This document shows, one piece after another, positions 1 through 47,161 of a DNA stretch of 64,000 nt. Origin of the DNA: Candidatus Zixiibacteriota bacterium (lineage in GTDB: Bacteria; Zixibacteria; MSB-5A5; RBG-16-43-9); NCBI GenBank assembly GCA_030692925.1, contig JAUYBY010000093.1, positions 11,258 through 75,257 on the forward strand. Direction: 5' to 3'. The notes under the pieces were generated by a model that did not search any database, was not told the origin of the DNA, and saw nothing but the letters and a program-made list of their open reading frames with translations. How positions within the stretch are numbered: position 1 is the first letter of the stretch; each line of letters starts with the position of its first letter. Both the position numbers and the translations under genes were made by a program.

Positions 1-1011
1 GGTAGAAAGCTGGCTTTCCCTGGCGATCAGGTCTATGTGAGCTGGTTCAGCAGAAAGTAAGTGGTAAACTTTTTGTTCCTGCTCAGAAAGTGAAAAACTT
101 ATGTCCTTCTTAGGTTCTTCTGTTTCATTGGAAAAAACATTCTTCAGCTCCTCTAAGACATCCTCAGCCCGGGTTACCAGTGTAGCTCCATTTTTGATCA
201 ACCAGTTGGTTCCCTGGCTCCCCTTGGAGCTTATGTTGCCTGGAATAGCGAAGACCTCCCTCCCTTGCTCTAAGGCAAGCTGAGCTGTGAGAAGTGCTCC
301 GCTTTTTATTCCAGCTTCGATGATTATCACCCCAAGGGAAAGACCGCTTATACACCTGTTCCTTTTAGGGAAATTGTTCCCTTCCGGCTCTGTGCCTAAC
401 AAGAATTCGGAGATCAAAGCGCCGTTTTTCTCGATCCTCTCAGCCAATTTCTTGTTCTCTGGCGGATAGATAACATCCAGCCCAGACCCGAAAACCGCAA
501 CCGTCCTTCCTTTTGACTCTAAGGCAAAGTGATGCGAGATCGAATCAACCCCCCGGGCAAACCCGCTGACTATGGTGATCCCTTTTTCTGCTAATTCACG
601 GGTGATTTTTTCAGCGATGAGCTTGCCGTAAGACGATGGCAGTCTTGTTCCGACGATGGCTAAAGCTTTAGAATCTTCATTTTTAATCTCCCCCTTTACG
701 AAAAGGAAAGGAGGAGGGTCATAGATATTTTTCAGGCCAGGAGGATATTCAGCACACTTAAAAGTGATGAATCTGATCCCATCTTTTCCCACTCTCAAGC
801 TTTGTTTTTCTGCCTCTTCCCAGGAGTTGAAGTTTTTTATGTTCTGAGCGGTCATTTCACCTATATCAGGTATCTGCTCAAGCTCCCTTAATCTGGCTGC
901 GAACACCTCCTTAGGTGAGCCAAAATGATTTAAAAGCGAGATAAACCTTTTTGGTCCAACTCCCGGGACTAAAGACAACCCGATCCAATCTCTTATTTCA
1001 GAAACCTCCAA
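1..1011 (-). CDS. dprA: DNA-processing protein DprA/Smf (C-terminal end runs off the window; probable TTG start at 1011)
   Basis: My own minus-strand translation: LEVSEIRDWIGLSLVPGVGPKRF...ALAIVGTRLPSSYGK...GFARGVDSISH...GSGLDVIYPPENKKLAE...FPKRNRCISGLSLGVIIIEAGIKSGALLTAQLALEQGREVFAIPG. This is the typical DprA Rossmann-like core. It is absent from the ORF track because no stop lies inside the window. Confidence 0.85.
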   Translation of the reverse strand, partial: MEVSEIRDWIGLSLVPGVGPKRFISLLNHFGSPKEVFAARLRELEQIPDIGEMTAQNIKNFNSWEEAEKQSLRVGKDGIRFITFKCAEYPPGLKNIYDPPPFLFVKGEIKNEDSKALAIVGTRLPSSYGKLIAEKITRELAEKGITIVSGFARGVDSISHHFALESKGRTVAVFGSGLDVIYPPENKKLAERIEKNGALISEFLLGTEPEGNNFPKRNRCISGLSLGVIIIEAGIKSGALLTAQLALEQGREVFAIPGNISSKGSQGTNWLIKNGATLVTRAEDVLEELKNVFSNETEEPKKDISFSLSEQEQKVYHLLSAEPAHIDLIARESQLST

Positions 1012-16148: not shown

Positions 16149-16997
16149 CTAATTTCCACAGATTTTTTGCAATAGAAAAAATAAAATAATCCCGCAAATC
16201 GAGGATAAAAAATTGACCCAGTCATTATTCAACCAGGATATTCCTGAGACCCTGTTTGTGTCAAAATTACAGTGAGTTTTCCTCTCAGTCGACTTATTGC
16301 AGATGGGACAGAGATACTGCGCCTGCAAAAAGGCACCTAACAGACTATCTATAAACGAGCCTGAAAAACCGGCTATGACTATTATCAAAAAAAGCTCCGT
16401 CCTAAAGGGAACAGGAGAAATTCCCGGCAGGAACCCAACTAAGACCAGGAAAAAAGAGCCAAAAAGAGAGCTTGCAGTTCCGATCAGACTTATACCTCCT
16501 GAACTGCCCGGCGATACTCTTTTAAAACCTCTCAGAGAAATTGGTTGAGCTTTAGACAAAATACCTATTTCAGTTCCCCAGGTATCAGCATTAACTGTGG
16601 CTAAACAGGCTAAATAGGCGGAGTAGATAGAGGGGGAGGGGAATATAAAATAAATAAAAGAAAGTGCTCCTGCTAAAACACCATTTGCCAGAACCTGGTT
16701 TTTATCCCGTGCCCCGGTCTTCTCGAAAACATCTTTATATTTTATTTTTTGACCTGACTTATACCTGGAAAGAAAACTTGATGAAAAAAAGAAGAATAAA
16801 AGAGGTAAGGCAAAACCAATCCCGCCAGTTCCGAAGATTATGGCACCTAAGAGAAATGCAGCCGAAGCCCCGTCCGAGGTGAGGAGTTTGAATCTGTAAG
16901 CAAGGGTTGAGACCAGGGCACTTAAGACCGTTCCCAGGAAAAGCTGGAGTGCAAGTTTAAGGATCATAAAAGCTGGAATCTTTTCCTGAAAAACCAT
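16149..16997 (-). CDS. DUF92/TMEM19-family integral membrane protein
   Basis: Polytopic membrane protein with the pattern typical of DUF92 proteins and a Cys cluster CPICN...THC near the C-terminus. The family assignment is from memory. Confidence 0.6.
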   Translation of the reverse strand: MVFQEKIPAFMILKLALQLFLGTVLSALVSTLAYRFKLLTSDGASAAFLLGAIIFGTGGIGFALPLLFFFFSSSFLSRYKSGQKIKYKDVFEKTGARDKNQVLANGVLAGALSFIYFIFPSPSIYSAYLACLATVNADTWGTEIGILSKAQPISLRGFKRVSPGSSGGISLIGTASSLFGSFFLVLVGFLPGISPVPFRTELFLIIVIAGFSGSFIDSLLGAFLQAQYLCPICNKSTERKTHCNFDTNRVSGISWLNNDWVNFLSSICGIILFFLLQKICGN

Positions 16998-19123
16998 TCT
17001 GTGGCTAGAAACAGGATAAAGAGAATCAAAAGAAAAGGCTGGGTCCAGAGGGGTATCTCCCTGGTTTTTAATCTGACTCTTTTCTCTAAGTTCAAACCGT
17101 TTAGAAGCGATGGAAAATTCTCAGGCTCCGAGTATTCACCCCCGGAAAGTAAAGCGATCTGCTGCAGAAGCTCTTTATCCGGCTTTAAATCTTCATCCTC
17201 TAAACTGGTTTTTTCTATTTCAAAACTGCCGGAGGAAGTTCCCAGAATTATTCCGTTCTGCCTGGCATCCCCTTTAAAAAGATATCTGCCCGGAGGTAAA
17301 AAGGAAACGGTATAGGAATAATCCCCGTTTTCATCCGGAGTCAGGTTGAAAAGTGATGAATCTGCTTCCTTTTCTTTTGGGTAGAGTTTTATTTTTATCT
17401 CCGCTCCTTTGATTTTCTGATAGCTCTCATCGAAAAGCCTGGAGACAAATTTTATCTCTTCACCTCTTTTATAGACATTCTTATCCGTGAAGATTTTGAA
17501 CCTCTCTAAATCTTCTTTTGACAAAAGCCACCTGAACGAGTTCTCCCAGAGCTTTTTATAGGCTGAATTATCCTGCCCGATTCCCCAGAGGAGAAAATCC
17601 CATTTCCACAAAGGCGAGAAACTCAGGACCTCTATTTTTCCTTTCTCTTGCTCTTTGACAATAATTCCCGGAAGAACTTCCTGGTTACCGTTGAAAAGTG
17701 CCAGGATTTTTGCTCCAGTTTTTTCTTTTAATGGTATCATCTGCTCAAAAGGAGGAAGGTTTGCCCATAAAGAGAGATTTTCCTCCGGGTCATCTGAAAG
17801 GCGGGTTATCGGATGAACTTTTCCATCCTGGGTAAGGGTCAAATTGAAAGTCTGGTTTAAAGGCTTTTCTCCCTTTACGATCTCAAAAGGAAGAAAATCC
17901 AAAGAGCTTAAAAGCCCTCCTCTTTTATAAAACTCCTCCCCAACTACGAGTAGAATGGAAATCCCTTTTCCGTATATTAGCTCTCTAATTGCCTTTTGAT
18001 TCTGCTCTAAGAATTGAGGAGAATCCAGCAGGATCAAAAGGTCACAGGCTTTGAGCTTCTCACCTGCCGAAAGCTCACCCGAAACCGGCTGGTTTGATTT
18101 TGAGAAGACCAGGCTTTCGAAAGATATGTCCTTATTCCCGGATAAAAATCTTTTGAGGAAATTGTACTCCCAGTTCAGGCTCTGGCTTACCAGAAGCAGT
18201 TTGAATTTCCGGTCCAGGACTTTCTGGGTGAAGCTTTTGAAGTTATTCTGCAGGAAAGTTTCTCCTTCTATTTTAGGAATTATGACCTGGTATCTATGTA
18301 TCCCTTTTGTCTCCGGCTCAAATACCAGCTTGAGTTCCTGGATTTCACCTGAGAAATTGAAGACGATTTCTTTTTGAGTTAGGGTTTTCTTCTCCTCTTG
18401 CAGGTAAACCGGGATTTTTATTCCCTTATATCCCTGATTTTTCAGGGTAACTTTGACAGTATCCTTTTCCCCTGAATAAGCAATTTCATTATAGTCCAGC
18501 TTTTCTATGCTGAGGTCTTTAAACGGCACAAATTCTCCGATTCCTACAGAGTAGATAGGAAGATTATATTTTTTTGAAATGGCTAACGGGTCTGCTCCGG
18601 AGTTGTTAGCTCCATCGCTTAAGAGGATAATTGCGGAAAGCTCTTTGTCTTTCAAGCCCTCTTTGAGCTTTTCTAAACTACTCCCGATTGCAGTGGCTTC
18701 TCCGGCAAAAGGAGGCAATTGTCTGGTGAGGTCAAAAGAAACCAGACTATCTGAAAAAAGATAAGAATAGACTTCGGTTTTGGACAGGAGGTCTTTAAAA
18801 CTTTTCTCTCCTAAAAGTCCCTGTAGCACTTCTTTCCTGGAAAGAGAGTTATTTTTGATATTCATGCTTTTGGAGGAATCCAGAAGAAGGGCGATTTTTG
18901 GATTTTCCCAGGATTTTCTGGCTATTCCCAACAAAGGCTCAGACAGGGCTAAAAAAAGACAGAATAAAGCCAGCCATCTCAAGACTAAAAGAAAAACTCT
19001 CTTCTTAATCGAAAGGGGGGGTATGGTAAAACGATAGGAAAGAAAAGCTATGATAAAGGTACAAATGAAGATGAGCAGAAGCAGAATCAAATTGTGCGAT
19101 TGAAAATCTATCCACAGTTTCAA
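16964..19123 (-). CDS. Large membrane protein with a BatA-type N-terminal double-TM anchor and a vWA-like segment
   Basis: N-terminal two-TM pattern (LLLLIFICTFIIAFLSYRF...LRWLALFCLFLALSEPLLG), LLDSSKSMN (vWA-like), and a C-terminal TM. Overlaps the DUF92 gene by 34 nt. Confidence 0.5.
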   Translation of the reverse strand: MKLWIDFQSHNLILLLLIFICTFIIAFLSYRFTIPPLSIKKRVFLLVLRWLALFCLFLALSEPLLGIARKSWENPKIALLLDSSKSMNIKNNSLSRKEVLQGLLGEKSFKDLLSKTEVYSYLFSDSLVSFDLTRQLPPFAGEATAIGSSLEKLKEGLKDKELSAIILLSDGANNSGADPLAISKKYNLPIYSVGIGEFVPFKDLSIEKLDYNEIAYSGEKDTVKVTLKNQGYKGIKIPVYLQEEKKTLTQKEIVFNFSGEIQELKLVFEPETKGIHRYQVIIPKIEGETFLQNNFKSFTQKVLDRKFKLLLVSQSLNWEYNFLKRFLSGNKDISFESLVFSKSNQPVSGELSAGEKLKACDLLILLDSPQFLEQNQKAIRELIYGKGISILLVVGEEFYKRGGLLSSLDFLPFEIVKGEKPLNQTFNLTLTQDGKVHPITRLSDDPEENLSLWANLPPFEQMIPLKEKTGAKILALFNGNQEVLPGIIVKEQEKGKIEVLSFSPLWKWDFLLWGIGQDNSAYKKLWENSFRWLLSKEDLERFKIFTDKNVYKRGEEIKFVSRLFDESYQKIKGAEIKIKLYPKEKEADSSLFNLTPDENGDYSYTVSFLPPGRYLFKGDARQNGIILGTSSGSFEIEKTSLEDEDLKPDKELLQQIALLSGGEYSEPENFPSLLNGLNLEKRVRLKTREIPLWTQPFLLILFILFLATEWFFRKRFQLL

Positions 19124-23038: not shown

Positions 23039-26000
23039 TCAGAAGGTGACCTGAGCCCAGATGCTCAACTCCCTGGTATGATTCTTCTCCCCGCTTATTT
23101 TATTGGTTGTATCCAGCCAGCGCCCGGACAGCCCGCCTGTAACCTGGGAAGAAAAGCTGTATCCTGCGCTGGGCGTTAAAGAGAATTCCTTAGTATCTGC
23201 AGATATGTTGAACCCCTGTTCCCCTACTGAGATTTTGGTCTGGTTATGCTTTATGGAAATGCCCAACCCCAGGTTTAAATTGCTCTGGAATTTTATCTTC
23301 TTGAGAAAAGGAAGCTTCATCCCTTTTGGTGCGCTGAAGGAATAGGCAGCATTGACTCCATAAGCATCTGAAGTGCCGATGGTCTTGCCTCCTCCCCCAG
23401 ACACCCCGGATAAAGCTTGACTCTCTGCCACTAACCTATCCCAGGACCAATTAGTCTGGATTCTGTTATTGAAAGTTACCTTCAATGATAAAGGAGTAAG
23501 ACTCTTGGTGATATCCCTTTTGTTCAGCTTGCCGGTCAGACCGTCTTCTGCTGTATCAACTTTCCTTCTGTAATTAAAAGAGTAATCCACACTGGAGGCA
23601 AACCTCTTAAGAATTTTTATCTTCTCTAAGTTGCTCCAGGTTAAAACCATATCTGGGAAAGTCGTGCTCACATTCCTCACCGGGGTTCCAGAACTGGAGA
23701 CAATATTATCTACTTTAGAGTACCTTAAACTCGAGATATTTATATTTGAGGAAACCCTTAAGGCACTTCCCAGATCCAGGTTTTTCTGGGTACTCAGTCC
23801 GTCAGATCTTGCAGTCTGGGGGTCAGTGGAAAATGGAACATCGGCTTTGTCCGTGAATCCAAACTGATAGGAAAGGGAGGGCCTTTCTAAAAGCCCGCTT
23901 TTGGTGGAGGTCTTGGTTATCCGATAGTTTATGCTCAAAGCAGCCAGGTTCTGGCCTAAATTACCTACAAAGCTCCTTACCCAATTTAACGGACTTAGAC
24001 CTTTTTTAGCCTCTGCCTTGGGCTTTAGGATTCCAAATATCTTCTGCCAATAGAAGGTAAAGTTGGCTGATTTACCGGATTGATTTCCCACTGACTTGGT
24101 TCCGTGCAACTGCACCGGGTCGCCATTCTCTTTGTAGGAGGAGTTGAAACTGAAGTTTTGGTCTAAAATTCCTATCCACTTTGGACGGTAAGTGGCTGAG
24201 AAGGACTGTGATCTGCTTATTTCAATCCCCAGTTTAGCCTGTTTAGGTAAGAATGAGAATTTAAGGTTCTTATCATCTCTGATATCCCTTGAAGTCTCGA
24301 AAGTGTAACCCAGTGACACTGTTTTCAAGGGAGCCATAGAAGCACTGATTGTGCCGTTGAAATAACGGGCATATTGTGAGGTAATGTTCCCCGCACTGCT
24401 CTGGCTAAAAGACTTGATACTTCTGACTGAAGAAGAGAACATCAGGTTGGTGGGCAGGGGGTTAATAGTCTCAGAGGAGAGCTTTTTTAGGAGGAAAACC
24501 GATTTCAACCCCTTGAAAGGTGAGAAAGTTAGATTTTTCCTGGGGGTCATATCATACTGTAGTCCGAATCCATACCCCTGACTATTGGAGACTGGAGTCA
24601 CAGAACTCCTGAAATCCGTGCGCGTATAATAGATAGATTGGTTCAATTTAAGCCTCTTTAGAGTAAGCTTTAAAAGCCAGTTGTTTGTCTCCCGGTTAAA
24701 GCTGGGGAAAAAACTGAAACTCTTGGATGTGGATTCGGTCCTATCCAGGCTCCTTAGTCCCGCGGGCAGGATGATATCCGAGTCTGGCTTTAGCCTTGGC
24801 AGGTCAAGCGATTTTGTCAGGTTAAAGGAAAAAGGAAGGTTCAAGCCCCAGGAAGGAGGCAGGAATTTTTCAAAAGAAGTAGTTAAACTTATCCCTAAGC
24901 CGCTGGAGACAACCCCTAACCCTTTGCCCTCGGTCAGACTTCTGAACTCAGCATCTCTACGGGAAAATGTAATTCCCAGGCTGAAAAGATCAGCGAACTT
25001 GGTGGAGATGCTTCCGGAGTAATACCAGCCCGGCACCTTGCGCACATCTGTAACCCGGAGTTCGTCTACCCAGATTTCTCCCGACATCTCAGTTGAGTCC
25101 TTTTTTAAGGTATCGGTATATACTCCCATGTTAAACCACGCAATCTGATTGAGTCTTGGGTCTCCTTTCACCCGGTAATTCCCTGCTGTTGTATCACGAG
25201 CTGCTGTGGAATCCTTAGAAGCACTCATCAGCATGTAGTTTTTCAGAGCAGTTATCTGGCTAAAATCCATATTGACTTCACTTCTTGAATCCCATCCAGG
25301 ATAAAGGTCGCAGTGATATTCGTAGAAATTCAGGGAATCTGTGCCCATCCTGTAGAAAAATTTAACACCGGAATTGTCTGTGGGTCCGTGCACGAACATC
25401 TTCAGCCCCTGATAATTAGTATAATCCTCTGCTTTGTGTATTCGATATGCGGAGCCATAATGCCCGGGCTTAAGGTTCTGGTATTTTAAAACCAGGGACT
25501 GCTCCTTTTCCCGGATATTAGTACTTCTATCTAAAATCCCCGCGATTCCTGGAGGGGGATTGTAGTTATTATTATCAAAGGTGTTGATCACGAAGACCTC
25601 AAATGATTCGCGAGTCGAATCGACTGGGGCAAAAGTCGAATCGTTCATTGACTGAACGCCAATGCTCCTCCACCGGTTACTCACCAGTTGGATAGAGGCG
25701 ATCTGCACTGAAACCGTCTTGCCAGTGGTATCAGAGGAGGAAAGCCATATCCGGGCAAATTTTATGCTGGAGAAATCAGGAGCTCCCACGCTGATTCGGT
25801 TCTGTGTATTTTCCAGAGGAATGCGGTAAAGTCGCCAACCGTTATGATAGGTACCGGGCACCCAGAGAGAAGCGTCTTTTAAGTTTATCGGAAATTCGAA
25901 ATAGTTATCATCTTTATCTAACTCGTTAATCCCATTGATATCCTCAGTATCAGGCCTTCTCCCTCTGTCCGGATCACTGGCATTCCCTTGAGTGCCATTT

Positions 26001-28984
26001 ATGTGGCTATAATTGTTTTTATCTTTCTCTGGATCATAACCCCAGTTATCCCCGCTCAAATCAATTCCTGCAGAATCCTCAAATATCCCATCCAAACCAG
26101 TATCTTCATCAGGATCTTCATCTAAGATTCCGTTCCCTCTTTGACCATTGGAGGGCCTATCTTCTGTTTGCAGTAAACCATCACCGTTTATGTTTTCGCT
26201 TATTTCGCCTAAGTCAATGTTCAAAACGATACCTAAGGTAGCGCTTGCGTCTTCCTTAACCCAGACCTCCAGGAACTTGGTCCTGGTCTGGTCCCAGCTG
26301 CTCGGAGCGAATGCTCTCATAACCCCGTTGCAGGACTTATAAGAGGAATCAGAATAGAAGGCAGGATTAACGCCAACGCTATCTTTCGGCGCATGCGGAT
26401 GTTTGGGGTAAAGCTCTAAATTGAGCACATCCATCCAGGCTTCCCTTGCCTGAACCTGACGGTTAGGCCAGATATCTTGTATCTGCACCCGGTCATAAGG
26501 GTTATACCAGATCATCCTTGCTCTCTGCCAGTTCCCTTGAGGCATGCTGGAAAGGGACCAGGTTCCCCGGCGAATCCCCAGATCAGTATATTCTAAGGAG
26601 CTTTCAAAATCATCTATATAGGCTTTGTTTATCAGATTGGGATTAGGTATGCTCTGAGCCACTTTCAGGCTAATATCAACTTTGGAGGGCTCCTCGGTTC
26701 CGAAAAGGGGAAGAGCATCTGCCAACTTAGTCATAATCGAGGGGGTTAAGGAGAAGGAAAGGTCTGTGCCCCAGACGAAATTTTTTTTCTGCTCCTCGCC
26801 AACCCTGGGTCTATCATCGGTGGATTTCTCGCTTTTGTAAAGCGCCACGCTGTTGATTGTTAAACCGCTAGCGGCCTGATATTTCGCCTGAAGTCCGTAA
26901 AGCGATTTCTTCTCTGCCATAATAAACGGGGCATATTCATAATCAATTTTTAGCTCTGCGGTTGCGTTTGTAGCCTCCTGAGATAGAAAACTGATCTGCC
27001 CGTTATCGTAATCAATATTATAATCCTTGCCTTTGGCTAAATTCTTACCGTTCAAGGTCACTACTTCCGAGCCTTCGATTATCGGAGCATGACCTAAGGC
27101 AAACTCGGTCTTGCGGCTTTTGGTCTCAACGTAGATATAATATTTGGTCTTGTCCCCTAACTTTTGCACAAACTGGTTGTTTTCTGGGGTATTGTATATG
27201 TCAGGTATTTTTTCATTTAAGGTATCAGCACCATTTTGAGGAAATGGTCTGTAATTAAAAGGATGCCGGTCCGGGAAGAAGAGCAGACCCTTGTTAAAAT
27301 CTATCCGGTCTAAATCTACAACCCCATCCGGTGTATCCTTCTTCCCATATTGATCAATGTTATCCAGCCCCAATATCTGAATATACCTCACCCCATTCTG
27401 CTGGTCCGGATCAGTGTTATTGGTGTACTCTGATTCTAATCGGCTGACTCCTTTATAGATATTTATCTTCAGCCCATCCTTTTCGATATTCCTTGAGCCC
27501 AGTGAATAGACATTCCTCCACTCGTATTCCCAGGTAACCTGATCCGGACGGGAATCATACGGCTTGAGAAGTTTGAGCAGAAAGGTTGTATCCGACACCA
27601 GAATGCTGTCAGGATTAGAAGGAATGTAGTATCTTAGGGTTCCTATAGAATCTCGAGTTCCATCTTCATGCTTTACCACACCCCAGTAAGCTAATACATC
27701 ATTTTCTCCCGAGGAATAAGGTAACTCTATAAATGGCAAGGTTGCAGTATTACTGGCTATATCCCTGGTCATAGTGCGATAGACATAATAGTCTTCTTTA
27801 TCGATATGTTTAAATACCCTGTATTCAGACTCACTTGTATCTTGCTCTCGATTTATTGGGTCAACACAGGCAAAACCGTGAGCCGAAGTATTGTAAAGTG
27901 TATCCGAAAGAGTAATGCTCTTATAAAGTTCAAACTCTACTAAGCTATCCCCTGGCTGAAAATCATTGACCTGGTGATCCAACGCAGAACTTCTTCCCAG
28001 ATAGTAGAATCTCCTTTTCACAAAATCATAATCCCGGATATAACTTGTAGCGCTCTCTGAGCCGGCTTTGAATGTGGTTCTTTGAGTGGAGGATTTCTCC
28101 TGGCTGGTTATCATTGTCAGGCCCAGTCTGCCGACTCTGGCCGTGGCTTTAATCCCGAAAAGACCGCGTATTGCCTGGCTGTACCCGACCAGGCTGCTTC
28201 CCACAGTCAGGCTTGTATTCCCCAATTCTATGCTCTGCAGGATCTCGTCTTCCTCTCCCGCATACCGTAAGTGAATCCGGTTCGCCAGATCAGTTGTGGT
28301 TGCGCTATTCTGGTCAACGTCCACGGAGATTTTGCTTCCGATATTTCCATTGATCTTGAAACTGTATTTCTGCTCCATATTCAAAGAGGGCCATTTGGAG
28401 GGCTTGTAAGTCGCCGTCTTGACCAGCCCCTCTGTCCAGTTACTCCTTCCGGAAAAGGAGATCTTCCGGTTTCCGGTGATTTTCAGACTGGGACCTCCCT
28501 CGCCTATGAATTTGGATACGATGGAGGGAAATTTAACCGGGATGTCGAACTGGAAAAAGCTCCTGCGCTTTCCCTGCTGGGTCTGGATTAAGGAAAGGTT
28601 TATGTTCTTTCGCCAGTTATCCTGATATTGAGAGGAAAGAGTATAACTCATATAAGAATCCAGGCTCAGGGGGAAAACATTATCAACCGGGTAAGAGCCC
28701 AGCTTATCCTTAAGCTCGACTACTTTATCTTCGTAGTTTATTTTAACTGTCCGGGCAAAGAAGATTTTGTTTTTAAGGAGAGGAAGCTCTTTAAAAGCCA
28801 GGGAAAGACCCACATCTTGAGTGCCCGGCTTATGATAGGAGCAGCTACTATTTTTCGCGTCTAAATCTAATTTCAAGCCCTGGGCTGCGCCTAAAGCCGG
28901 CAAAAGTAAAAACAAAACCGCCAGTTTCAAAAAAGACTTTACGCCCTTGGCGGCAAAAAGAGGTACTTCTGATTTTCTTACCAT
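23039..28984 (-). CDS. sprA: T9SS translocon SprA (giant outer-membrane beta-barrel)
   Basis: 1981 aa with a signal peptide. Composition typical of the SprA family (long beta-strand-rich sequence, C-terminus ...SIWAQVTF), alongside T9SS CTD cargo genes in the same window. Recognised from memory, not by search. Confidence 0.8.
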   Translation of the reverse strand: MVRKSEVPLFAAKGVKSFLKLAVLFLLLPALGAAQGLKLDLDAKNSSCSYHKPGTQDVGLSLAFKELPLLKNKIFFARTVKINYEDKVVELKDKLGSYPVDNVFPLSLDSYMSYTLSSQYQDNWRKNINLSLIQTQQGKRRSFFQFDIPVKFPSIVSKFIGEGGPSLKITGNRKISFSGRSNWTEGLVKTATYKPSKWPSLNMEQKYSFKINGNIGSKISVDVDQNSATTTDLANRIHLRYAGEEDEILQSIELGNTSLTVGSSLVGYSQAIRGLFGIKATARVGRLGLTMITSQEKSSTQRTTFKAGSESATSYIRDYDFVKRRFYYLGRSSALDHQVNDFQPGDSLVEFELYKSITLSDTLYNTSAHGFACVDPINREQDTSESEYRVFKHIDKEDYYVYRTMTRDIASNTATLPFIELPYSSGENDVLAYWGVVKHEDGTRDSIGTLRYYIPSNPDSILVSDTTFLLKLLKPYDSRPDQVTWEYEWRNVYSLGSRNIEKDGLKINIYKGVSRLESEYTNNTDPDQQNGVRYIQILGLDNIDQYGKKDTPDGVVDLDRIDFNKGLLFFPDRHPFNYRPFPQNGADTLNEKIPDIYNTPENNQFVQKLGDKTKYYIYVETKSRKTEFALGHAPIIEGSEVVTLNGKNLAKGKDYNIDYDNGQISFLSQEATNATAELKIDYEYAPFIMAEKKSLYGLQAKYQAASGLTINSVALYKSEKSTDDRPRVGEEQKKNFVWGTDLSFSLTPSIMTKLADALPLFGTEEPSKVDISLKVAQSIPNPNLINKAYIDDFESSLEYTDLGIRRGTWSLSSMPQGNWQRARMIWYNPYDRVQIQDIWPNRQVQAREAWMDVLNLELYPKHPHAPKDSVGVNPAFYSDSSYKSCNGVMRAFAPSSWDQTRTKFLEVWVKEDASATLGIVLNIDLGEISENINGDGLLQTEDRPSNGQRGNGILDEDPDEDTGLDGIFEDSAGIDLSGDNWGYDPEKDKNNYSHINGTQGNASDPDRGRRPDTEDINGINELDKDDNYFEFPINLKDASLWVPGTYHNGWRLYRIPLENTQNRISVGAPDFSSIKFARIWLSSSDTTGKTVSVQIASIQLVSNRWRSIGVQSMNDSTFAPVDSTRESFEVFVINTFDNNNYNPPPGIAGILDRSTNIREKEQSLVLKYQNLKPGHYGSAYRIHKAEDYTNYQGLKMFVHGPTDNSGVKFFYRMGTDSLNFYEYHCDLYPGWDSRSEVNMDFSQITALKNYMLMSASKDSTAARDTTAGNYRVKGDPRLNQIAWFNMGVYTDTLKKDSTEMSGEIWVDELRVTDVRKVPGWYYSGSISTKFADLFSLGITFSRRDAEFRSLTEGKGLGVVSSGLGISLTTSFEKFLPPSWGLNLPFSFNLTKSLDLPRLKPDSDIILPAGLRSLDRTESTSKSFSFFPSFNRETNNWLLKLTLKRLKLNQSIYYTRTDFRSSVTPVSNSQGYGFGLQYDMTPRKNLTFSPFKGLKSVFLLKKLSSETINPLPTNLMFSSSVRSIKSFSQSSAGNITSQYARYFNGTISASMAPLKTVSLGYTFETSRDIRDDKNLKFSFLPKQAKLGIEISRSQSFSATYRPKWIGILDQNFSFNSSYKENGDPVQLHGTKSVGNQSGKSANFTFYWQKIFGILKPKAEAKKGLSPLNWVRSFVGNLGQNLAALSINYRITKTSTKSGLLERPSLSYQFGFTDKADVPFSTDPQTARSDGLSTQKNLDLGSALRVSSNINISSLRYSKVDNIVSSSGTPVRNVSTTFPDMVLTWSNLEKIKILKRFASSVDYSFNYRRKVDTAEDGLTGKLNKRDITKSLTPLSLKVTFNNRIQTNWSWDRLVAESQALSGVSGGGGKTIGTSDAYGVNAAYSFSAPKGMKLPFLKKIKFQSNLNLGLGISIKHNQTKISVGEQGFNISADTKEFSLTPSAGYSFSSQVTGGLSGRWLDTTNKISGEKNHTRELSIWAQVTF

Positions 28985-29041: not shown

Positions 29042-29998
29042 TTACTCTCCTAAATAGATTACTTCTTCTTCTAACTCTATGTTGAATTTTTCTTTTACTT
29101 TTTCTTTCAATGCCCTGGCTAAGGTTTTTACATCCTGTGAAGTGGCTTTGCCTGAATTTATTATTATGTTGGCATGTTTGGAGAAAACCGTGGCATCTCC
29201 TATTCTCATCTCTTTGGCACCAACCTGTTCTAAAAGATACCCTGCCGAGACTCCGGATGAGCAGTTCTTGGAGGATTTAATATTCTTGAAAAATGAGCCC
29301 GCAGAGCCCTCCTCTTCCGGAAGCCTAACCCTTCTCACCTTCAGGTTCTCCTCTATCTTCTTTCTTATCTTCTCCCTATCCTCCTTTTGCAAGATCAGGG
29401 TAGCTGAAAGCAAAATGTCCTTTGAGCTTTTTAATTTTGAATGACGGTAATCGAATTCAAAATAATCCCGATTGACTATCTCCAGCTTCCCTTTTGAGGT
29501 AAGGATTATACCTTCTTCCAGAACCTCGCAGATCGCCTTTCCGAAGGCGCCAGCATTACCGTAAACTGCACCACCCAGGGTGCCATAGATTCCTGCTGCA
29601 AACTCCAGACCCGACAATCCCAGTTCTTCTGAAAGGTCAACCAATTCCGAAAGCAAAGTGCCGGATTGAGCTGAGACCTTGTTCTCCTGAATCAGAACTT
29701 TTTTGCATAAGTTTTTTATCACCAGCCCGCGGAACCCGGAGTCGCTGACTAAAAGGTTACTCCCTCCTCCTAAGATGAAATACGGAAGATTAAACTCTTT
29801 TGCAGTATTTATTCCCTTGATCAGCTCTTCAGGAGTGAGGGCTTGATAGAAGAAATCAGCTGGACCGCCGATTCTGAAAGTCGTGTGAGAGGCTAAAAGC
29901 TCACCTGTTTTAAGATTCTCCCCTAAGATTTCAAAGAGCTTTTGCTTAATCCCTTCGGGATAAGCTTTTGGATTGCATCCTCTTCTATTTATCGACAT
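29042..29998 (-). CDS. murB: UDP-N-acetylenolpyruvoylglucosamine reductase
   Basis: FAD-binding TFRIGGPADFF...GGGSNLLVSD and the C-terminal MurB domain. Confidence 0.92.
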   Translation of the reverse strand: MSINRRGCNPKAYPEGIKQKLFEILGENLKTGELLASHTTFRIGGPADFFYQALTPEELIKGINTAKEFNLPYFILGGGSNLLVSDSGFRGLVIKNLCKKVLIQENKVSAQSGTLLSELVDLSEELGLSGLEFAAGIYGTLGGAVYGNAGAFGKAICEVLEEGIILTSKGKLEIVNRDYFEFDYRHSKLKSSKDILLSATLILQKEDREKIRKKIEENLKVRRVRLPEEEGSAGSFFKNIKSSKNCSSGVSAGYLLEQVGAKEMRIGDATVFSKHANIIINSGKATSQDVKTLARALKEKVKEKFNIELEEEVIYLGE

Positions 29999-30092
29999 CC
30001 AGTAAGCAGATTTAACCTGTAAATAATTTAACTGTTATTATTAAAAAAGCAAGGGAAAAATGAAGAAAAACCGGTGAAATTCATCTTTTTAC

Positions 30093-30123
30093 TTGACAAA
30101 AAGACGATGGGGGGGGGTATATT
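30093..30123 (+). promoter_or_regulatory. Sigma70-like promoter with a G9 tract in the spacer (TTGACA-19 nt-TATATT)
   Basis: TTTTTACTTGACAAAAAGACGATGGGGGGGGGTATATT. The upstream context TTTTTACTTGACAA is identical to the promoter at 46107-46120. The spacer is 2 nt longer than optimal and contains 9 consecutive G (30109-30117). Confidence 0.5.
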
Positions 30124-30198
30124 ATACCAGGAAACGGGTATAACCGCCCTAAAACAAAAATTTGAAAAAATAGAAATGGGAATTTTAAGGGAGGGAAG

Positions 30199-30939
30199 AT
30201 GTTAAAAAGGCTAGGTTATTTGATGTTATTAACCATGTTAACCATTTTTGGGCTTGCCCTGAAGTGTGAGGAAGGGCAGGTGGGTCCCAATCCCTGTGAT
30301 GATTACAAATCTGGAAGAATGAGAATAGAGCATGACCAACAAGCAGGGTGGAGTATTTACCAGCATGAATTTAACGGAGACGTTTGGGTCTCTGCGTTTA
30401 AGGAAGTAGGAACCGAGGTAGCTTTCTGCGAGGACGATGACGAGTATTTCACTGGGACTGATACAACTTATTTCGACTCGGATAGTTTAATGAAATACGA
30501 AGATTTTGAACACTTGAATCGTTTTTTTCAATCCCGAAAAACTTTGGCTGCTGAGTATTTTTTAGGGTCACTAAAAGGTTCAGTGCAAAATAAAACCCGC
30601 ACCGCAAAAGTCTGGGGATTAACGGCGGCGGGTTCGCCCAATGTCCCTCCTTCCACAAGATGGTCCTTTGTGTTCGTTCGAGATGTGCTATCAGAACCGA
30701 GTTATGGAAGGAAAAGAACCCTTACCTACGCTGTGGTCCATGAGTTGGGTCATCAGAGGGCGGGATTAACACATCCTGAAGAACATCCAGAATATCATTT
30801 TCCAGAACCAAACGAGGACTGTATTATGCATTCTAGTGTTGGTTTGAGCGAGACGGTTTTAACAAATATGGGATTTTGTGCTCATGACGATGCCACGCCA
30901 GATAATTGTAGATATTTTCTAAAACAACGTAATAGATGA
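30199..30939 (+). CDS. Secreted putative zinc metallopeptidase (zincin, metzincin/archaemetzincin-like motif)
   Basis: N-terminal hydrophobic signal. VVHELGHQRAGLTH...DCIMHSS...C(9)C. Strong SD (GGGAGGG) upstream. Confidence 0.5.
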   Translation: MLKRLGYLMLLTMLTIFGLALKCEEGQVGPNPCDDYKSGRMRIEHDQQAGWSIYQHEFNGDVWVSAFKEVGTEVAFCEDDDEYFTGTDTTYFDSDSLMKYEDFEHLNRFFQSRKTLAAEYFLGSLKGSVQNKTRTAKVWGLTAAGSPNVPPSTRWSFVFVRDVLSEPSYGRKRTLTYAVVHELGHQRAGLTHPEEHPEYHFPEPNEDCIMHSSVGLSETVLTNMGFCAHDDATPDNCRYFLKQRNR

Positions 30940-31871
30940 TGGAGGAAAAGATGAATTCTTTAAGATTAATTTCAAGGTTCGTTTTTATTCTTGGGATTAT
31001 GGCTATACTTACACAAGGCACAGCTTCACAGACTTTTGATCCCAATGCTTTGACGTTCACTATTCATTTAGATAAAAACACCTATTTGGAAAATGAAGCC
31101 ATCTGGGTTACGGTGAGTTTAAAAAACACAAGTAAGGTACAAGTGTATGCTGGAAGTTTAGAACCGTTATGCGGCTTTCTGAAGTTTTACATACTTTCCT
31201 CTAAAGGAGATACTTTGCCAGGACCGCTTGTACAGGGAGACTGCTGGTTTCCAGAAGGCAAATATCCTTCCTTAGAATCTGGAGAGAAAGACATGGAAAT
31301 TATGAACATTCTGTCACATTACGGAATTTATAACAAAGATTGTGATTGTATTTGGGGAGGTGTTATCACAGAAGGCAAATATACTATTCAAGCTAAATTA
31401 AAAGATCTTTATCACAAGAAAAAAAGCGAAAAAATGGATATTTTTTCCAATAAGCTCTCACTTGAAGTAAAAAAGTCAACTAGTAAAGAAAAAGAAGTCT
31501 TAGACCTTTTAGTTAGTGCGAAAAGGGAACAAATAAAAGGCAATTCCTCAAGTGCGATAGACATCTACAAAAAGGTAATAAAAGAATACCCTCAAAGTGT
31601 CTATGCAGATAATGCCTATTTTTTTCTCCCTACTACTTATTTCAGTAATAATGAGCTTGCTTACGATTTCTTACAAAAATATCCTAACTCAGGCTTAGCT
31701 CCGGAGGTCATTGAAGACCTAACAATAAGAAGAGAGGGTAGAGAAAAAGCACAGAAAAGTCTTGAAAAACTCATAAGCCAATATCCGAACACCAAGATTT
31801 CAGAGTATTCGCGGGTCTTAATAGAAAAATTAAAGAGAGGGAAAGTCATAGCTTCTGAAGAAACTAAATAA
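30936..31871 (+). CDS. Secreted protein with an N-terminal Ig-like region and C-terminal TPR/YbgF-like repeats
   Basis: Signal ...QGTAS|QTF. Repeats YPQSVYADNAYFFL, KYPNSGLAPEV and QYPNTKISEYS. The ATGA overlap with the upstream gene indicates translational coupling. Confidence 0.45.
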   Translation: MMEEKMNSLRLISRFVFILGIMAILTQGTASQTFDPNALTFTIHLDKNTYLENEAIWVTVSLKNTSKVQVYAGSLEPLCGFLKFYILSSKGDTLPGPLVQGDCWFPEGKYPSLESGEKDMEIMNILSHYGIYNKDCDCIWGGVITEGKYTIQAKLKDLYHKKKSEKMDIFSNKLSLEVKKSTSKEKEVLDLLVSAKREQIKGNSSSAIDIYKKVIKEYPQSVYADNAYFFLPTTYFSNNELAYDFLQKYPNSGLAPEVIEDLTIRREGREKAQKSLEKLISQYPNTKISEYSRVLIEKLKRGKVIASEETK

Positions 31872-31901
31872 TCTAGAATTTTAGGGAAAGAGGTGAGCAG
31901 C

Positions 31902-34900
31902 ATGAGTCAAAGGTACTTATTTTCTATTATGTTGATCTTTTGCTTCCTTACGCTTTATAACTTAGTAACTCCGCGCACAGCTTTCGGGCAAGAGCCAGTT
32001 GCTTCTCACATGTTTATTCCTAAGGATCTTTATAACCAAAACGGCTTCTACGCTCCTCGTATGAATAAGACCATAAGCAATCAACATAGGGACTTCTTTG
32101 GTAGCGGTCTGTTCAATACGCCGCACGGTGTGATAGCTTACAAGATACTGGGTGGAAATATTGACACCCATGAATATTTGATGGTCTCTGACCCACGATT
32201 CAACAGAGTAATAGCCAGCGACCAGCTTAATTCCTGGGTAGCAAGTTATGGTAGTTTTGGTGATGGGGCAGGCAACTTCGTCAGTCCTCACGGCATAGCC
32301 AACTGGGATGCGCATTACTATTATATAGCTGACACTTACAACAATCGGATTGTCCACATTGAGGCTACTTGCAACCCCAATCAGCCGGATGAGTGTAGCG
32401 TGATTTGGAGAGGTACTTACACTGCAGTAGCTGACCCCTATCCTCCGAGTTTAAGTATGCCCATGGATGTGGATGTGAGAGAGATGGAGAACGATCCTAC
32501 GAATTACTATACTCTGATGGCAGTGGCAGATACAAAAAATCACCGAATCGTTTTTTACCCGATAGGTCGTGGTAGCGGATATGGCATAGGTAAAACCCAA
32601 TCCGACTACGGAAGCGGTCAACTTTATTCCCCAACCTCTCTTTGCTTCGGAAGGAATACCAACGGGTGGCAGAATAGCAATCTGTTTGTGGTAGACAACG
32701 TAGATCGGAAGCTCAAAATCTATAGCGTCGGAGGCCCTGATGCAAGCGGCTTTATCAGCTTTTCTTTCTGGGGTGAGTATCCATTTCCCACAGGCTCTTA
32801 TCTCAGCAGTGTAGAAGTAGACAACAAGGGATTGATCTATGTTGTCGAAAGAAATTCAGGGAAAGTATTCAAGTTTAAGTGGTGCTCTAACTGCAATAGC
32901 AGGTTAACTCTCCTGGGAGTATATGGTGGACTGGGGGTCGAGGATGGGAAGCTCCAATATCCAAACGGAATTGCAGTCGCTCATGGGATAGATTATACGG
33001 GCTATCCTAACACTCCGCGGCATCCTATATACGATTTAGCCGATGTCTTTATCACTGAATCTTGGGGAGATCAGACCGGGGTGAGAAGATTCATCCTTGG
33101 GGTGGATGTTCTGAATCTCATCTCAATATATTATCCTTACAATTATTCGACTGGCGGTGGCAACTGTATCCAATATGAGTATAACACAACAGACTATGCA
33201 AATGTCACAGAGAAAATCTTCAACCCATCCGGCGCATCTGTTTCGACCAGGATTCTAAATTCTCTTGTTCCTGGTTCACATGGTTTTATCTGGACAGTGG
33301 GAAACAATCCCAATGGAAATTACAAAATTCAGATTACGGCAACGTCTATTTATGCTGGCTCGAATACTGATGTGAAAGAGGTTTTTGTTGCAGTTAACAA
33401 ATCAGATTCAATTGGTAATCCTATAATAACAGAAGGACCAGGCTTGCAAGGAATAAGCCCAGGTGCCTGCATTGTGAGTGGCAATACCTACAAAGCCTAT
33501 GTAAAAGCCTTCGACCCTCGCGATTTACCGCTCACATATTACTGGGATGCTGAGATAGGTATTTTTCGAAATGGTTCGCACCAGTACACCACTTCTACTG
33601 ATACCACAACCCTCACAGCTACTATGCCCTACGGCGGAGATCTTAATTCAGAGCTGAATAGACCCCACTATTTAAAAGTCACCATTCATAACTCTCAAGG
33701 TGGAGAAACGATTAAATCCACCGACTACCTGGTGGCGAATACCCCGGAAGAGTGCTGTGCTGCCTGCCCGTATGTCTATACCTGGTCTGGTTCAGAATTC
33801 AAGAAGGAGAATACCATCCTGGCAAAATCGGAAGATACACAATATTTCAAAAAGAAAGCGATGGATTTCTATCTTTTGAGCCAGCCTTTGGCTTTATCTG
33901 ACAGCGGTTACAAGCTTCAAATCAAGGAATTCGAAAACGAACATTCATTCATTGATTACCTGGCATTGGTTTCCATAGACTATCCTGCGAGTAGCAAATT
34001 GGGTATTGGTTCAACTGGCAAATTCTATCTTTATTCCAATCCTCGTTTGCCTATTTCCTGTGTAGATAATTTGGGGCAGGATTGCCTGTCAAAGATAATC
34101 GAGGAGGATACTCTTTATTTAGAGAGCAATAGTAGTAAAGGGCATCTCATTCTGAATTACGGCACATTCGGAACCCTGGAGGCTCTGGCAAAGTCTTTGG
34201 CTACTGCACCTGGCGGTGACCCGGTCCCGGACCCTCCTAAGGAACCTTGTATGTCGAGTAAACCTGTCCCGGTGCCGGTCATTTCTCAGGGTAACATACT
34301 CACGGTTGAGGTATTTTCGGATACTGGCTGGATTTTAGCGGGGAAGGTATATCCCCGTGCTTATCCGGGCAAGACCCTGGTCGAATTCACTCCTTATGTG
34401 AAACCTGGCAAGGAATTGAAAGTCAAGCTGAACTGGGAGAAAAGGTATAGGGCAAACCAGCTGGCATATTATGATTTCGACACCACCGGCTTTAACATAA
34501 ATAGAATCTCTCTTTCCTCAGCCTATCATTCAGTTGCGGGAGACGTGACTTCTAAGCTAAATCAAGAAGATAACGCTTTTGCAGAACTGCTACCCGGCGA
34601 AAAAATTGACCTGTATTTCCCCTATGTGTCATTGAGTCCGGAAAAAAGAAGAGATTTCGTCTTAATCTCTAAAGGTTACTACATCAACCAGGACACGGGA
34701 TTCACCAGCTCTGTCAGCTTAGTTGAGTTACCTTCAGATTTTTCTGTTTCTCAAAATTATCCTAACCCTTTCAATCCGTTGACCGAAATCAAATTCAGCT
34801 TGCCGGAAAATTCACCTGTCAAGCTGGTGATTTTCAATGTCCTGGGCCAAAAGGTGAAAACCTTGCTAGACCAGGATATGCCGGCAGGCAACCACTCTGT

Positions 34901-35012
34901 GATCTGGGATGGCAAAAATCAGGAAGGAAAGGATGTAGGAAGCGGCATTTACTTTTACAGAATTGAGGCAGGGCAATACAAAGTATCCCGGAAGATGTTG
35001 ATAATCAAGTGA
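31902..35012 (+). CDS. Large NHL-repeat surface protein with a T9SS type-A C-terminal sorting domain
   Basis: Signal ...RTAFG|QEP. NHL-like repeats (YNNRIVHIE, KNHRIVFYP, DRKLKIYS, SGKVFKFK), Ig-like middle modules, and the CTD. I prefer the ATG at 31902 (GAGGTG 7 nt upstream) over the track GTG at 31893. Confidence 0.75.
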   Translation: MSQRYLFSIMLIFCFLTLYNLVTPRTAFGQEPVASHMFIPKDLYNQNGFYAPRMNKTISNQHRDFFGSGLFNTPHGVIAYKILGGNIDTHEYLMVSDPRFNRVIASDQLNSWVASYGSFGDGAGNFVSPHGIANWDAHYYYIADTYNNRIVHIEATCNPNQPDECSVIWRGTYTAVADPYPPSLSMPMDVDVREMENDPTNYYTLMAVADTKNHRIVFYPIGRGSGYGIGKTQSDYGSGQLYSPTSLCFGRNTNGWQNSNLFVVDNVDRKLKIYSVGGPDASGFISFSFWGEYPFPTGSYLSSVEVDNKGLIYVVERNSGKVFKFKWCSNCNSRLTLLGVYGGLGVEDGKLQYPNGIAVAHGIDYTGYPNTPRHPIYDLADVFITESWGDQTGVRRFILGVDVLNLISIYYPYNYSTGGGNCIQYEYNTTDYANVTEKIFNPSGASVSTRILNSLVPGSHGFIWTVGNNPNGNYKIQITATSIYAGSNTDVKEVFVAVNKSDSIGNPIITEGPGLQGISPGACIVSGNTYKAYVKAFDPRDLPLTYYWDAEIGIFRNGSHQYTTSTDTTTLTATMPYGGDLNSELNRPHYLKVTIHNSQGGETIKSTDYLVANTPEECCAACPYVYTWSGSEFKKENTILAKSEDTQYFKKKAMDFYLLSQPLALSDSGYKLQIKEFENEHSFIDYLALVSIDYPASSKLGIGSTGKFYLYSNPRLPISCVDNLGQDCLSKIIEEDTLYLESNSSKGHLILNYGTFGTLEALAKSLATAPGGDPVPDPPKEPCMSSKPVPVPVISQGNILTVEVFSDTGWILAGKVYPRAYPGKTLVEFTPYVKPGKELKVKLNWEKRYRANQLAYYDFDTTGFNINRISLSSAYHSVAGDVTSKLNQEDNAFAELLPGEKIDLYFPYVSLSPEKRRDFVLISKGYYINQDTGFTSSVSLVELPSDFSVSQNYPNPFNPLTEIKFSLPENSPVKLVIFNVLGQKVKTLLDQDMPAGNHSVIWDGKNQEGKDVGSGIYFYRIEAGQYKVSRKMLIIK
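34740..35009 (+). other. T9SS type-A C-terminal sorting domain (Por secretion tail / FlgD-Ig-like)
   Basis: FSVSQNYPNPFNPLTEIKFSLP...VIFNVLGQKVKTL...GNHSVIWDGKNQEGKDVGSGIYFYRIEAG. Confidence 0.85.
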
Positions 35013-35108
35013 GTTTCTACATAAAGTAATTGGATACTTTCGATCAATGGGTCACCCAGTTCATTGGGCATCTTTTGCTCGATAAATCGAGCACCTACTC
35101 CGCCTCTG

Positions 35109-45896: not shown

Positions 45897-46113
45897 GGAG
45901 TTTTAGGCAGGAGTCTGAAAAGTCAAACCGTTTCAGGCTAAAGGTTGGCCATATACCCTGAACACATCAAAAACCTTTCGGTTGTATGCTGTCTTCTCTT
46001 CTTTTTTGAGAATGTTATCGGAGAGGTAACCTGCTCTGGCTTAAATTCTTAGGCTGAGTCTATTCTAAAATTCGGATTGTCTGGAAAAATTTTTAGAAAA
46101 ACCCATTTTTTAC

Positions 46114-46142
46114 TTGACAATATTTATCTTTTACTTTATAAT
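46114..46142 (+). promoter_or_regulatory. Consensus sigma70 promoter TTGACA-17 nt-TATAAT
   Basis: TTTTTACTTGACAATATTTATCTTTTACTTTATAAT read directly from the sequence, about 240 nt upstream of the CDS at 46385. Confidence 0.7.
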
Positions 46143-46384: not shown

Positions 46385-47161
46385 ATGCTCAAAAAAGTTT
46401 CCTTGATTGTTGTCTTGATATTGATTCTGGGAAGCGCCTCCTGGGCAGCTAATAAGATGGTTGCCACCAGTGATGCCAATAAGGTTGCACTGAATCTTTC
46501 CGCAGATGAGCCCCTGGGTGGGGTGGTGGTGGCGCTGAAGTTCGCTGAGCCTGGGACAAACGTCATCTGCACTAAGGCGGATTTCTCAGGTGGAATGGCA
46601 GACTATATCGCCGATGACGGCCAGAGCGGAGCCAAATTCACCATCATCGATAACGAGAAGAAAACCGTCCTGGCTGTGGCTATACCTTTCACCGCTAAGG
46701 CTATTCCGCAGGGTGAAGGGACTTTTTTAAACCTGGAATTCAAGGGCGAGGGAAAGGTCAAATTGGAGCAGACCACCATCTCTCATCAGACCGGCATCTC
46801 CCTGGTGAATACCAAGGCACAGGAGCTCAAATTTGATTTCAACCCGATTGAGCTCACTGCACCGAAGGTCCAGGCTCTTCCAAAAGATTTCTCTTTGGCT
46901 CAGAATTATCCTAACCCCTTCAACCCTTCAACCACCATTAGCTATGCTCTTCCTACCAATGCTTATGTAAAGCTTGTGGTTTACAACATCCTGGGACAAA
47001 AGGTGAAGACCCTGGTAGATGAAGAGCAGACTGCTGGATACAGGCAGGTAGTCTGGAATGGCCAGAACGACAAGGGCTCAGCGGTCGGAAGCGGAATCTA
47101 TTTCTACCGCATCCAGGCAGGTGATTTCACCAAGACCGCCAAGATGAGTTTGCTGAAATAA
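46385..47161 (+). CDS. Secreted cohesin-like beta-sandwich protein with a T9SS type-A C-terminal sorting domain
   Basis: Signal ...GSASWA|ANK. An N-terminal module of about 140 aa (LGGVVVALKFAEPG...GEGTFLNLEFKGEG) resembles cohesin-type folds (weak). The CTD is FSLAQNYPNPFNPSTTISYALP...VVYNILGQKVKTL...GSGIYFYRIQAG. Confidence 0.7.
   Translation: MLKKVSLIVVLILILGSASWAANKMVATSDANKVALNLSADEPLGGVVVALKFAEPGTNVICTKADFSGGMADYIADDGQSGAKFTIIDNEKKTVLAVAIPFTAKAIPQGEGTFLNLEFKGEGKVKLEQTTISHQTGISLVNTKAQELKFDFNPIELTAPKVQALPKDFSLAQNYPNPFNPSTTISYALPTNAYVKLVVYNILGQKVKTLVDEEQTAGYRQVVWNGQNDKGSAVGSGIYFYRIQAGDFTKTAKMSLLK

Follow-up and report, generated by a model that had tools for sequence, protein, structure and literature searches.

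The 64,000-nucleotide stretch of Candidatus Zixiibacteriota DNA that we analysed (hereafter referred to as the window) contains a run of nine G in the -35/-10 spacer of a conserved promoter, and we regard this run, with some reserve, as probably a slippage-prone tract which acts as a phase-variation or 'volume knob' switch of promoter spacing, of the porA/opc type. The anatomy of the promoter, its conservation in related genomes, the recurrence of tracts across the operon family and a length polymorphism in a homologous promoter were observed directly. Phase variation had been proposed in an earlier note on this DNA. The proposal gained from the conservation of the promoter in relatives, from the predicted secreted or surface nature of the operon products, from the presence of tracts in at least seven lineages and from the length polymorphism of L016-type promoters, but it lost ground to the tract-free closest relatives and to a 19-nt spacing that is ancestral.

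Promoter Anatomy and Sequence Context

The promoter is situated in the 200-nt divergent intergenic region which separates murB, on the minus strand, from a plus-strand operon (Table 1). Its hexamers, its 19-nt spacing and the place of the nine G within positions 30093-30123 were exactly those given in the earlier note, both in coordinates and in sequence. The upstream context was said there to be common to a promoter at 46107, and the string TTTTTACTTGACAA indeed matched exactly between the G9 promoter and the TTGACA-17-TATAAT promoter at 46107-46142. The latter is a perfect promoter that carries the same TTTTTAC upstream context, and the product under it is a 258-aa T9SS cargo protein (gene 46385-47161; FlgD_ig / Por_Secre_tail). 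A T-rich context before TTGACA was also present at other promoters of the window and in related loci: the window promoters examined for comparison (46114, 20339, 16127 and 7945) and the family loci have a T-rich stretch followed by TTGACAa, with spacers of 16-18 nt. A generic promoter scan, in which spacers of 16-18 nt were allowed, missed the G9 promoter for the sole reason that its 19-nt spacer falls outside that range.

Table 1. Features of the G9 promoter region in the window, and promoter tracts and tract alleles in homologous loci of the operon family.
Feature	Position or locus	Strand	Remark
-35 hexamer TTGACA	30093..30098	+	Read from the sequence; invariant in L001, L002 and L027
19-nt spacer AAAAGACGATGGGGGGGGG	30099..30117	+	Same length, other sequence in L001 and L027; 16 nt in L002
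G9 homopolymer adjoining the -10 hexamer, candidate slippage tract	30109..30117	+	G/C run-length scan
-10 hexamer TATATT	30118..30123	+	Aligns with TATATT (L027), TATGGT (L001) and TATAAT (L002)
T-rich upstream element ttcatctttttac, UP-element-like	30080..30092	+	Invariant in L001, L002 and L027
Shine-Dalgarno AGGGAGGGA	30188..30196	+	GGAGGGAAGATG unchanged in L001 and L002
Gene 1, 246-aa lipoprotein-like protein	30199..30939	+	Invariant HELGHQRxGLTH motif; no Pfam family
Gene 2, 311-aa TPR (BamD/YbgF-like) protein	30936..31871	+	4-nt overlap with gene 1
Gene 3, 1039-aa NHL-repeat protein, FlgD_ig / Por_Secre_tail	31893..35012	+	GTG start
Terminator-like hairpin and T run, operon end	35055..35078	+	Terminator scan
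murB, divergent neighbour	29042..29998	-	sprA downstream of murB at 23039-28984
Conserved murB-proximal intergenic segment	29999..30063	-	Kept even in operon-less L026
Candidate murB promoter, TTGCTT, 16 nt, TAAATT	30052-30047 and 30030-30025	-	Predicted from sequence
Strain-variable island, promoter and operon	~30064..35050	.	Missing in RBG_16_43_9 (L026)
TTGACA-aaatcttgc-G11-TAGATT	L006		Spacer 20 nt
TTGACA-aaacgggaat-C10-TATATT	L096		Spacer 20 nt
TTGACA-gcaatagagt-C6-t-TAAATT	L021		Spacer 17 nt
TTGACA-gaagtgtaa-C7	L024		No clear -10 hexamer
Interrupted tract CCCTCCCC	L095		Spacer 18 nt
TTGACA-aaga-G7-tagg-GATATT	L118		Spacer 15 nt
TTGACT-atga-Gn-C	L016-type		No clear -10 hexamer
L016-type allele G7C	L007/L090; one contig in X32		
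L016-type allele G8	L016		
L016-type allele G8C	Six runs: X33-35, X37-39		
L016-type allele G9C	L105		Protein 74% identical
L016-type allele, probably ~G12-13	One contig in X40		

Given their TTGACA/TAnnnT architecture, the promoters of the window are of the classical sigma-70 type and not of the Bacteroidota type, and the G9 promoter is one of them. A Bacteroidota-type promoter (-33 TTTG / -7 TAnnTTTG) was accordingly discarded, window and family promoters having the form TTGACA-16..18-TAnnnT. A MerR-type activator-dependent promoter, in which the spacer has 19-20 bp, was also discarded, as no dyad was visible in the spacer. Among the window, L001, L027 and L002 the spacer is conserved only in AAAA, and the promoter is flanked by murB on one side and by its own operon on the other. 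The same applied to an invertible promoter (inverton), since no inverted-repeat pair flanks the promoter around 30000-30200. An exact search of GTDB genomes with the conserved -35 context AAATTCATCTTTTTACTTGACAAAAA returned no matches.

In a run scan of the whole window (GC content, 43%), G9 was the only G/C run of at least 8 nt, followed by one G7 (19015-19021) and seven C6, which bears out the previous description of the tract as the sole long G/C homopolymer in 64 kb. According to the window's own run-length distribution, with a decay of 0.215 per extra base, 0.14 G/C runs of at least 9 nt are expected in 64 kb. A G9 anywhere in the window is mildly unusual only; one that falls within the spacer of a promoter is far rarer. 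The G7 at 19015-19021 corresponds to a coding-strand C7 about 34 codons into the minus-strand ORF 16964-19123, which encodes a 719-aa membrane protein with a weak MG2 domain match; this C7, which encodes ..IPPL.., could be a frameshift-prone site or nothing.

Products of the Downstream Operon

The products of the operon are predicted to be secreted or surface-located, as judged by the lipoprotein-type signal of the gene 1 protein and by the T9SS type A sorting domain of the gene 3 protein (TIGR04183, 35 bits with a cutoff of 23; PF18962, 27.7 with a cutoff of 27). HELGH in the gene 1 protein was invariant in 23 homologues. Searches of PDB profiles and NCBIfam with this protein gave sub-threshold matches only, to archaemetzincin (E 0.009) and to a snake-venom metalloproteinase (E 0.77), and its AlphaFold2 model, with a pLDDT of 52, was too poor for a fold search. 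The earlier note had described an operon for a zincin-like protein, a TPR protein and a 1036-aa NHL-repeat T9SS cargo protein. The TPR, NHL and T9SS assignments held, the size of the third product was corrected to 1039 aa owing to its GTG start, and 'zincin-like' should be taken as a putative designation that comes only from the HExxH motif and the sub-threshold matches. The sprA gene lies about 1 kb from the operon.

The Promoter in the Closest Relatives

Three relatives carry this intergenic region, namely L001 (gene 1 product 82% identical), L002 (gene 1 product 65% identical) and L027 (MurB 89% identical). In all of them the stretch that runs from the start of murB as far as TTGACAAAAA, including the T-rich TTCATCTTTTTAC, is almost invariant, and alignment with the window also extends to the -10 position and to the Shine-Dalgarno sequence. 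Because the -35 hexamer, the T-rich element, the -10 position and the Shine-Dalgarno sequence are kept while the downstream protein is 65-82% identical, TTGACA-19-TATATT is, on the strength of this conservation, taken to be a genuine promoter of the secreted-protein operon.

A G/C homopolymer was present in the spacer of none of the three relatives. L027 has the 19-nt spacer AAAAAGCAGTAAGGAGGTG followed by TATATT and L001 the 19-nt spacer AAAACTAAATAGAGTATTT followed by TATGGT, both free of repeats, and L002 has a near-perfect promoter, TTGACA-16-TATAAT. The spacers end in GGAGGTG in L027 and in GGACGCT in L002, and about four substitutions lead from the L027 spacer end to G9. The absence of the tract from these relatives, together with the same 19 nt in L001 and L027, indicates that G9 is lineage-specific and was born by substitution at a constant, ancestral length; a spacer end already rich in G would have needed only a few substitutions to become G9, with no slippage event fixed in the spacer of the window.

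Since L001 and L027 are repeat-free at 19 nt, this length is the ancestral and apparently tolerated spacing, and it is not demonstrably OFF; the promoter may normally work at this spacing, perhaps helped by an activator that binds upstream of it. The earlier claim that the loss of two G would lead to the optimal 17-nt spacer agrees with the 16-18 nt of other promoters, but is weakened by the repeat-free 19 nt that L001 and L027 keep. To judge from a spacer that exceeds those of the other promoters examined by 1-3 nt, the promoter of the window is probably weak, and a mutable tract would now stand where length matters.

Tracts Across the Operon Family

Comparison of the tract with related genomes, which had been suggested as a check, gave a divided outcome: the three closest relatives lack it, whereas distant homologues of the operon carry G/C tracts at the same spot (Table 1). 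A G/C run of at least 6 nt was present in the promoter spacer of at least seven lineages of the HExxH/TPR/NHL operon family, although for the L016-type promoters and L024 the term 'spacer' is less certain because no convincing -10 hexamer could be assigned. In the family loci with tracts the operon is built alike, combining an HExxH lipoprotein, a TPR protein and a large NHL/dockerin/FlgD_ig protein.

The 691 kb scanned (both strands, with C runs as reverse complement) contained 25 distinct G runs of at least 7 nt. Six of these 25, from four independent lineages, lay at most 20 nt after TTGAC[AT], a position expected for about 0.8% per run, and all six were upstream of the HExxH/TPR/NHL operon family. 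A long tract that adjoins the -10 hexamer was found in three promoters, all of them over-long (window, G9 and 19 nt; L006, G11 and 20 nt; L096, C10 and 20 nt); the other promoters of the window and the family mostly have spacers of 16-18 nt, apart from L118 (15 nt) and the tract-free L001 and L027 (19 nt). With respect to the direction of transcription, both poly-G and poly-C tracts occur in the family, and a strand-symmetric property such as slippage therefore fits better than a sequence-specific contact.

Runs of A were also observed. L119 and L120 have an A9/A8-type run in the spacer (TTGACA-aatgAAAAAAAAAcagc-TAAATT), as does L017 (TTGACA-aatcgtAAAAAAAAggg-), so that spacer homopolymers in the family are not restricted to G/C. 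In L003, L004, L008-L015, L091, L092 and L114-L117, the gene for the HExxH lipoprotein lacks a separate promoter and stands right behind another gene, whose product ends in ...GLAGFTF, like outer-membrane beta-barrel proteins. This placement brings the family to at least three operon contexts.

Length Polymorphism in Homologous Promoters

The tract of the L016-type promoter was found in several lengths (Table 1). Its flanks are identical between metagenomes, and the tract was the only indel in 400 nt (X33-35) or in 221 nt (X37-39). Two contigs of X32 overlap and then diverge exactly at the L016-type tract, and for a 98% relative of L006 the contigs in X24 end on both sides of G11. The L016-type promoter and L118, at 57% protein identity, have in common the core GCTTGACWAWGA-G7-YAGG, with diverged intergenic DNA around it. 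No contig of runs X41 and X44-X46 extended over the L016-type tract, and the L006 protein, used as a homologue query for more alleles of the G11 promoter, retrieved itself only. Neutral slippage, too, is expected to make tract lengths differ from one population to another.

Contigs of X40, X42 and X47, followed from L016 position 433, keep the upstream region and TTGACT and then continue with a different sequence, CCAAGGGGGCGGGGACCGG..., so that in these runs the -35 half of the L016-type promoter is joined to alternative downstream DNA. This variant, which is G-rich again and has an interrupted G run, occurs in some sediment populations.

Interpretation of the G9 Tract

As a switch, the tract would work through promoter spacing. 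With G9 the spacer has 19 nt, two above the optimal 17 (other promoters of this organism and its relatives, 16-18), which would probably result in low transcription; loss of one or two G during replication would shorten it to 18 or 17 nt and increase expression, and G10 or more would lower expression still further. The tract would thereby provide a heritable and reversible volume or on/off control, in the style of a contingency locus. That the tract of the window slips, that its length affects transcription and that this brings an adaptive benefit is what we infer.

It is rather unlikely, but deserves to be weighed, that G9 is instead an incidental, neutral homopolymer in a constitutively weak promoter, which drifted from a G-rich end and may slip without being used as a switch. 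The three closest promoters, all free of the tract, and the equal spacing of the repeat-free L001 and L027 accord with such an origin, as do the small number of substitutions (about four) that separate the L027 spacer end from G9 and the mere mild improbability of a single G9 when 0.14 are expected per 64 kb. Drift, however, predicts no concentration of tracts like that found here, where seven or more lineages of the operon family have them at one and the same position, far above background, and the tract shared by the L016-type promoter and L118 was kept across 57% protein identity while its flanks diverged. We also considered that the run might be a static element and not a mutable one, either a rigid or GC-rich spacer that confers supercoiling sensitivity or the site of a regulator, with expression set by physiology. 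Its position beside the -10 hexamer, identical in the window, L006 and L096, would suit such an element, as would the strong conservation of the 30 nt upstream, to which an activator could bind and make up for the spacing of 19-20 nt. We nevertheless consider it improbable: the run has any length from 6 to 11 or more, it is found in G as well as in C orientation, close relatives function without a tract, and a fixed binding site would not be expected to show length polymorphism between near-identical alleles.

We considered, finally, an artefact of sequencing or assembly, for instance the poly-G of two-colour Illumina chemistry. The G9 is known from one run, the groundwater metagenome X1 from which the window comes, at a low coverage of about 9x and as assembled contig, and no contigs of runs X2-X4 covered 30076-30143. 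In X1, however, the tract is internal to a single 9355-nt Logan contig, unbroken across it and with no differences from the window over 29600-30600. Both flanks align base for base with the relatives, with the same total spacer length, and equivalent tracts are present in independent JGI, ENA, NCBI and Logan assemblies. On account of these aligned flanks and independent assemblies, an artefact is essentially excluded, and we give it very little credence.

Extending the slippage switch from the window to the family, we suggest tentatively that Zixibacteria and neighbouring FCB lineages might keep HExxH-lipoprotein/TPR/NHL operons under simple-sequence contingency promoters, in which tracts are repeatedly born, kept and resized. 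The outcome would be a stochastic phase variation of the surface in free-living subsurface bacteria, presumably driven by phages or grazers and not by host immunity.

Comparison with Known Systems

In Neisseria meningitidis, porA (poly-G) and opc (poly-C) reportedly undergo phase variation through their promoter spacers, in work of van der Ende (1995) and of Sarkari (1994) that is cited in PMC5084427. The promoters described here resemble them in being sigma-70-type promoters of surface-protein genes whose -35/-10 spacer includes a homopolymer of G or C, where tract length sets the spacing, and in that the tracts of 9-11 nt are in the same range. They differ in the organism, which is an uncultured, free-living subsurface Zixibacterium and not a host-adapted pathogen, in the nearest relatives, which have no tract, and in the target, an operon of three genes, one of them for a T9SS cargo protein; switching and its effect on expression would here be deduced from sequence.

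Simple-sequence contingency loci have been described in Haemophilus, in Campylobacter (poly-G) and in Neisseria (PMC5084427, PMC8437040). Common to them and to the present case are a homopolymer of the hypermutable type at genes for surface structures and, in the L016-type promoter, a length polymorphism between strains with conserved flanks. In contrast, Campylobacter tracts are mostly intragenic and act by frameshift, whereas those reported here are in promoters, and no genome-wide excess of tracts was visible here, with one G/C run of at least 8 nt in 64 kb. In the fim promoters of Bordetella pertussis a stretch of poly-C separates the activator site from the -10 box, and they are similar in placing a C/G tract upstream of the -10 hexamer in an over-long promoter; the dependence of fim on an upstream activator could explain how 19-20 nt are tolerated here. 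Unlike in fim, no activator is known for the present promoter, and no BvgA-like site was identified in it. The invertons of Bacteroidota share with it the FCB superphylum and the kind of target (surface or secreted operons), but the G9 promoter has no inverted repeats, and the process proposed is slippage and not site-specific inversion.

To our knowledge, nearly all documented cases of homopolymer-driven phase variation come from host-adapted pathogens and commensals, and reports of simple-sequence phase variation from free-living uncultured phyla appear scarce; a search of the literature found no meaningful link between Zixibacteria and phase variation. The mechanism itself, of the porA/opc kind, is already known, and what would be new is its setting in an uncultured, free-living phylum and at a T9SS-linked operon. 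If confirmed, an uncultured phylum of sediment and groundwater would control a strain-variable surface operon linked to T9SS in this same way, and phages or predators would be indicated as the source of the driving pressure. Because the pattern extends through the family, the idea can be tested directly on metagenomic reads, and it offers a signature (TTGACA, ~10 nt, G/C run, TAnnnT) for the search of contingency loci in metagenomes. On the practical side, assemblies break or are mis-called at such tracts.

Strain Variability of the Locus

In RBG_16_43_9 (L026), the closest genome, in which MurB is 95% identical, murB stands directly beside an efflux OEP gene (L026 2730-3000), and in L027 (1765-2990) the equivalent promoter drives a different, 356-aa secreted protein. 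Around the island we found no mobile-element signatures in the form of direct or inverted flanking repeats of note. The presence or absence of the operon and the other protein in L027, without flanking repeats, indicate that the locus is a slot whose secreted-protein content varies between strains, as would suit products on which selection fluctuates.

The murB-proximal intergenic segment was nearly invariant in the four closest relatives and diverged in the more distant L028 and L029. An Rfam scan of the whole window matched no family, and the conserved segment is therefore not a known RNA. The L027 contig (DATKKH010000178.1) is labelled Terriglobales, yet it carries a Zixibacteria-like murB (89%) and the same intergenic promoter, and it is probably mis-binned or mislabelled.
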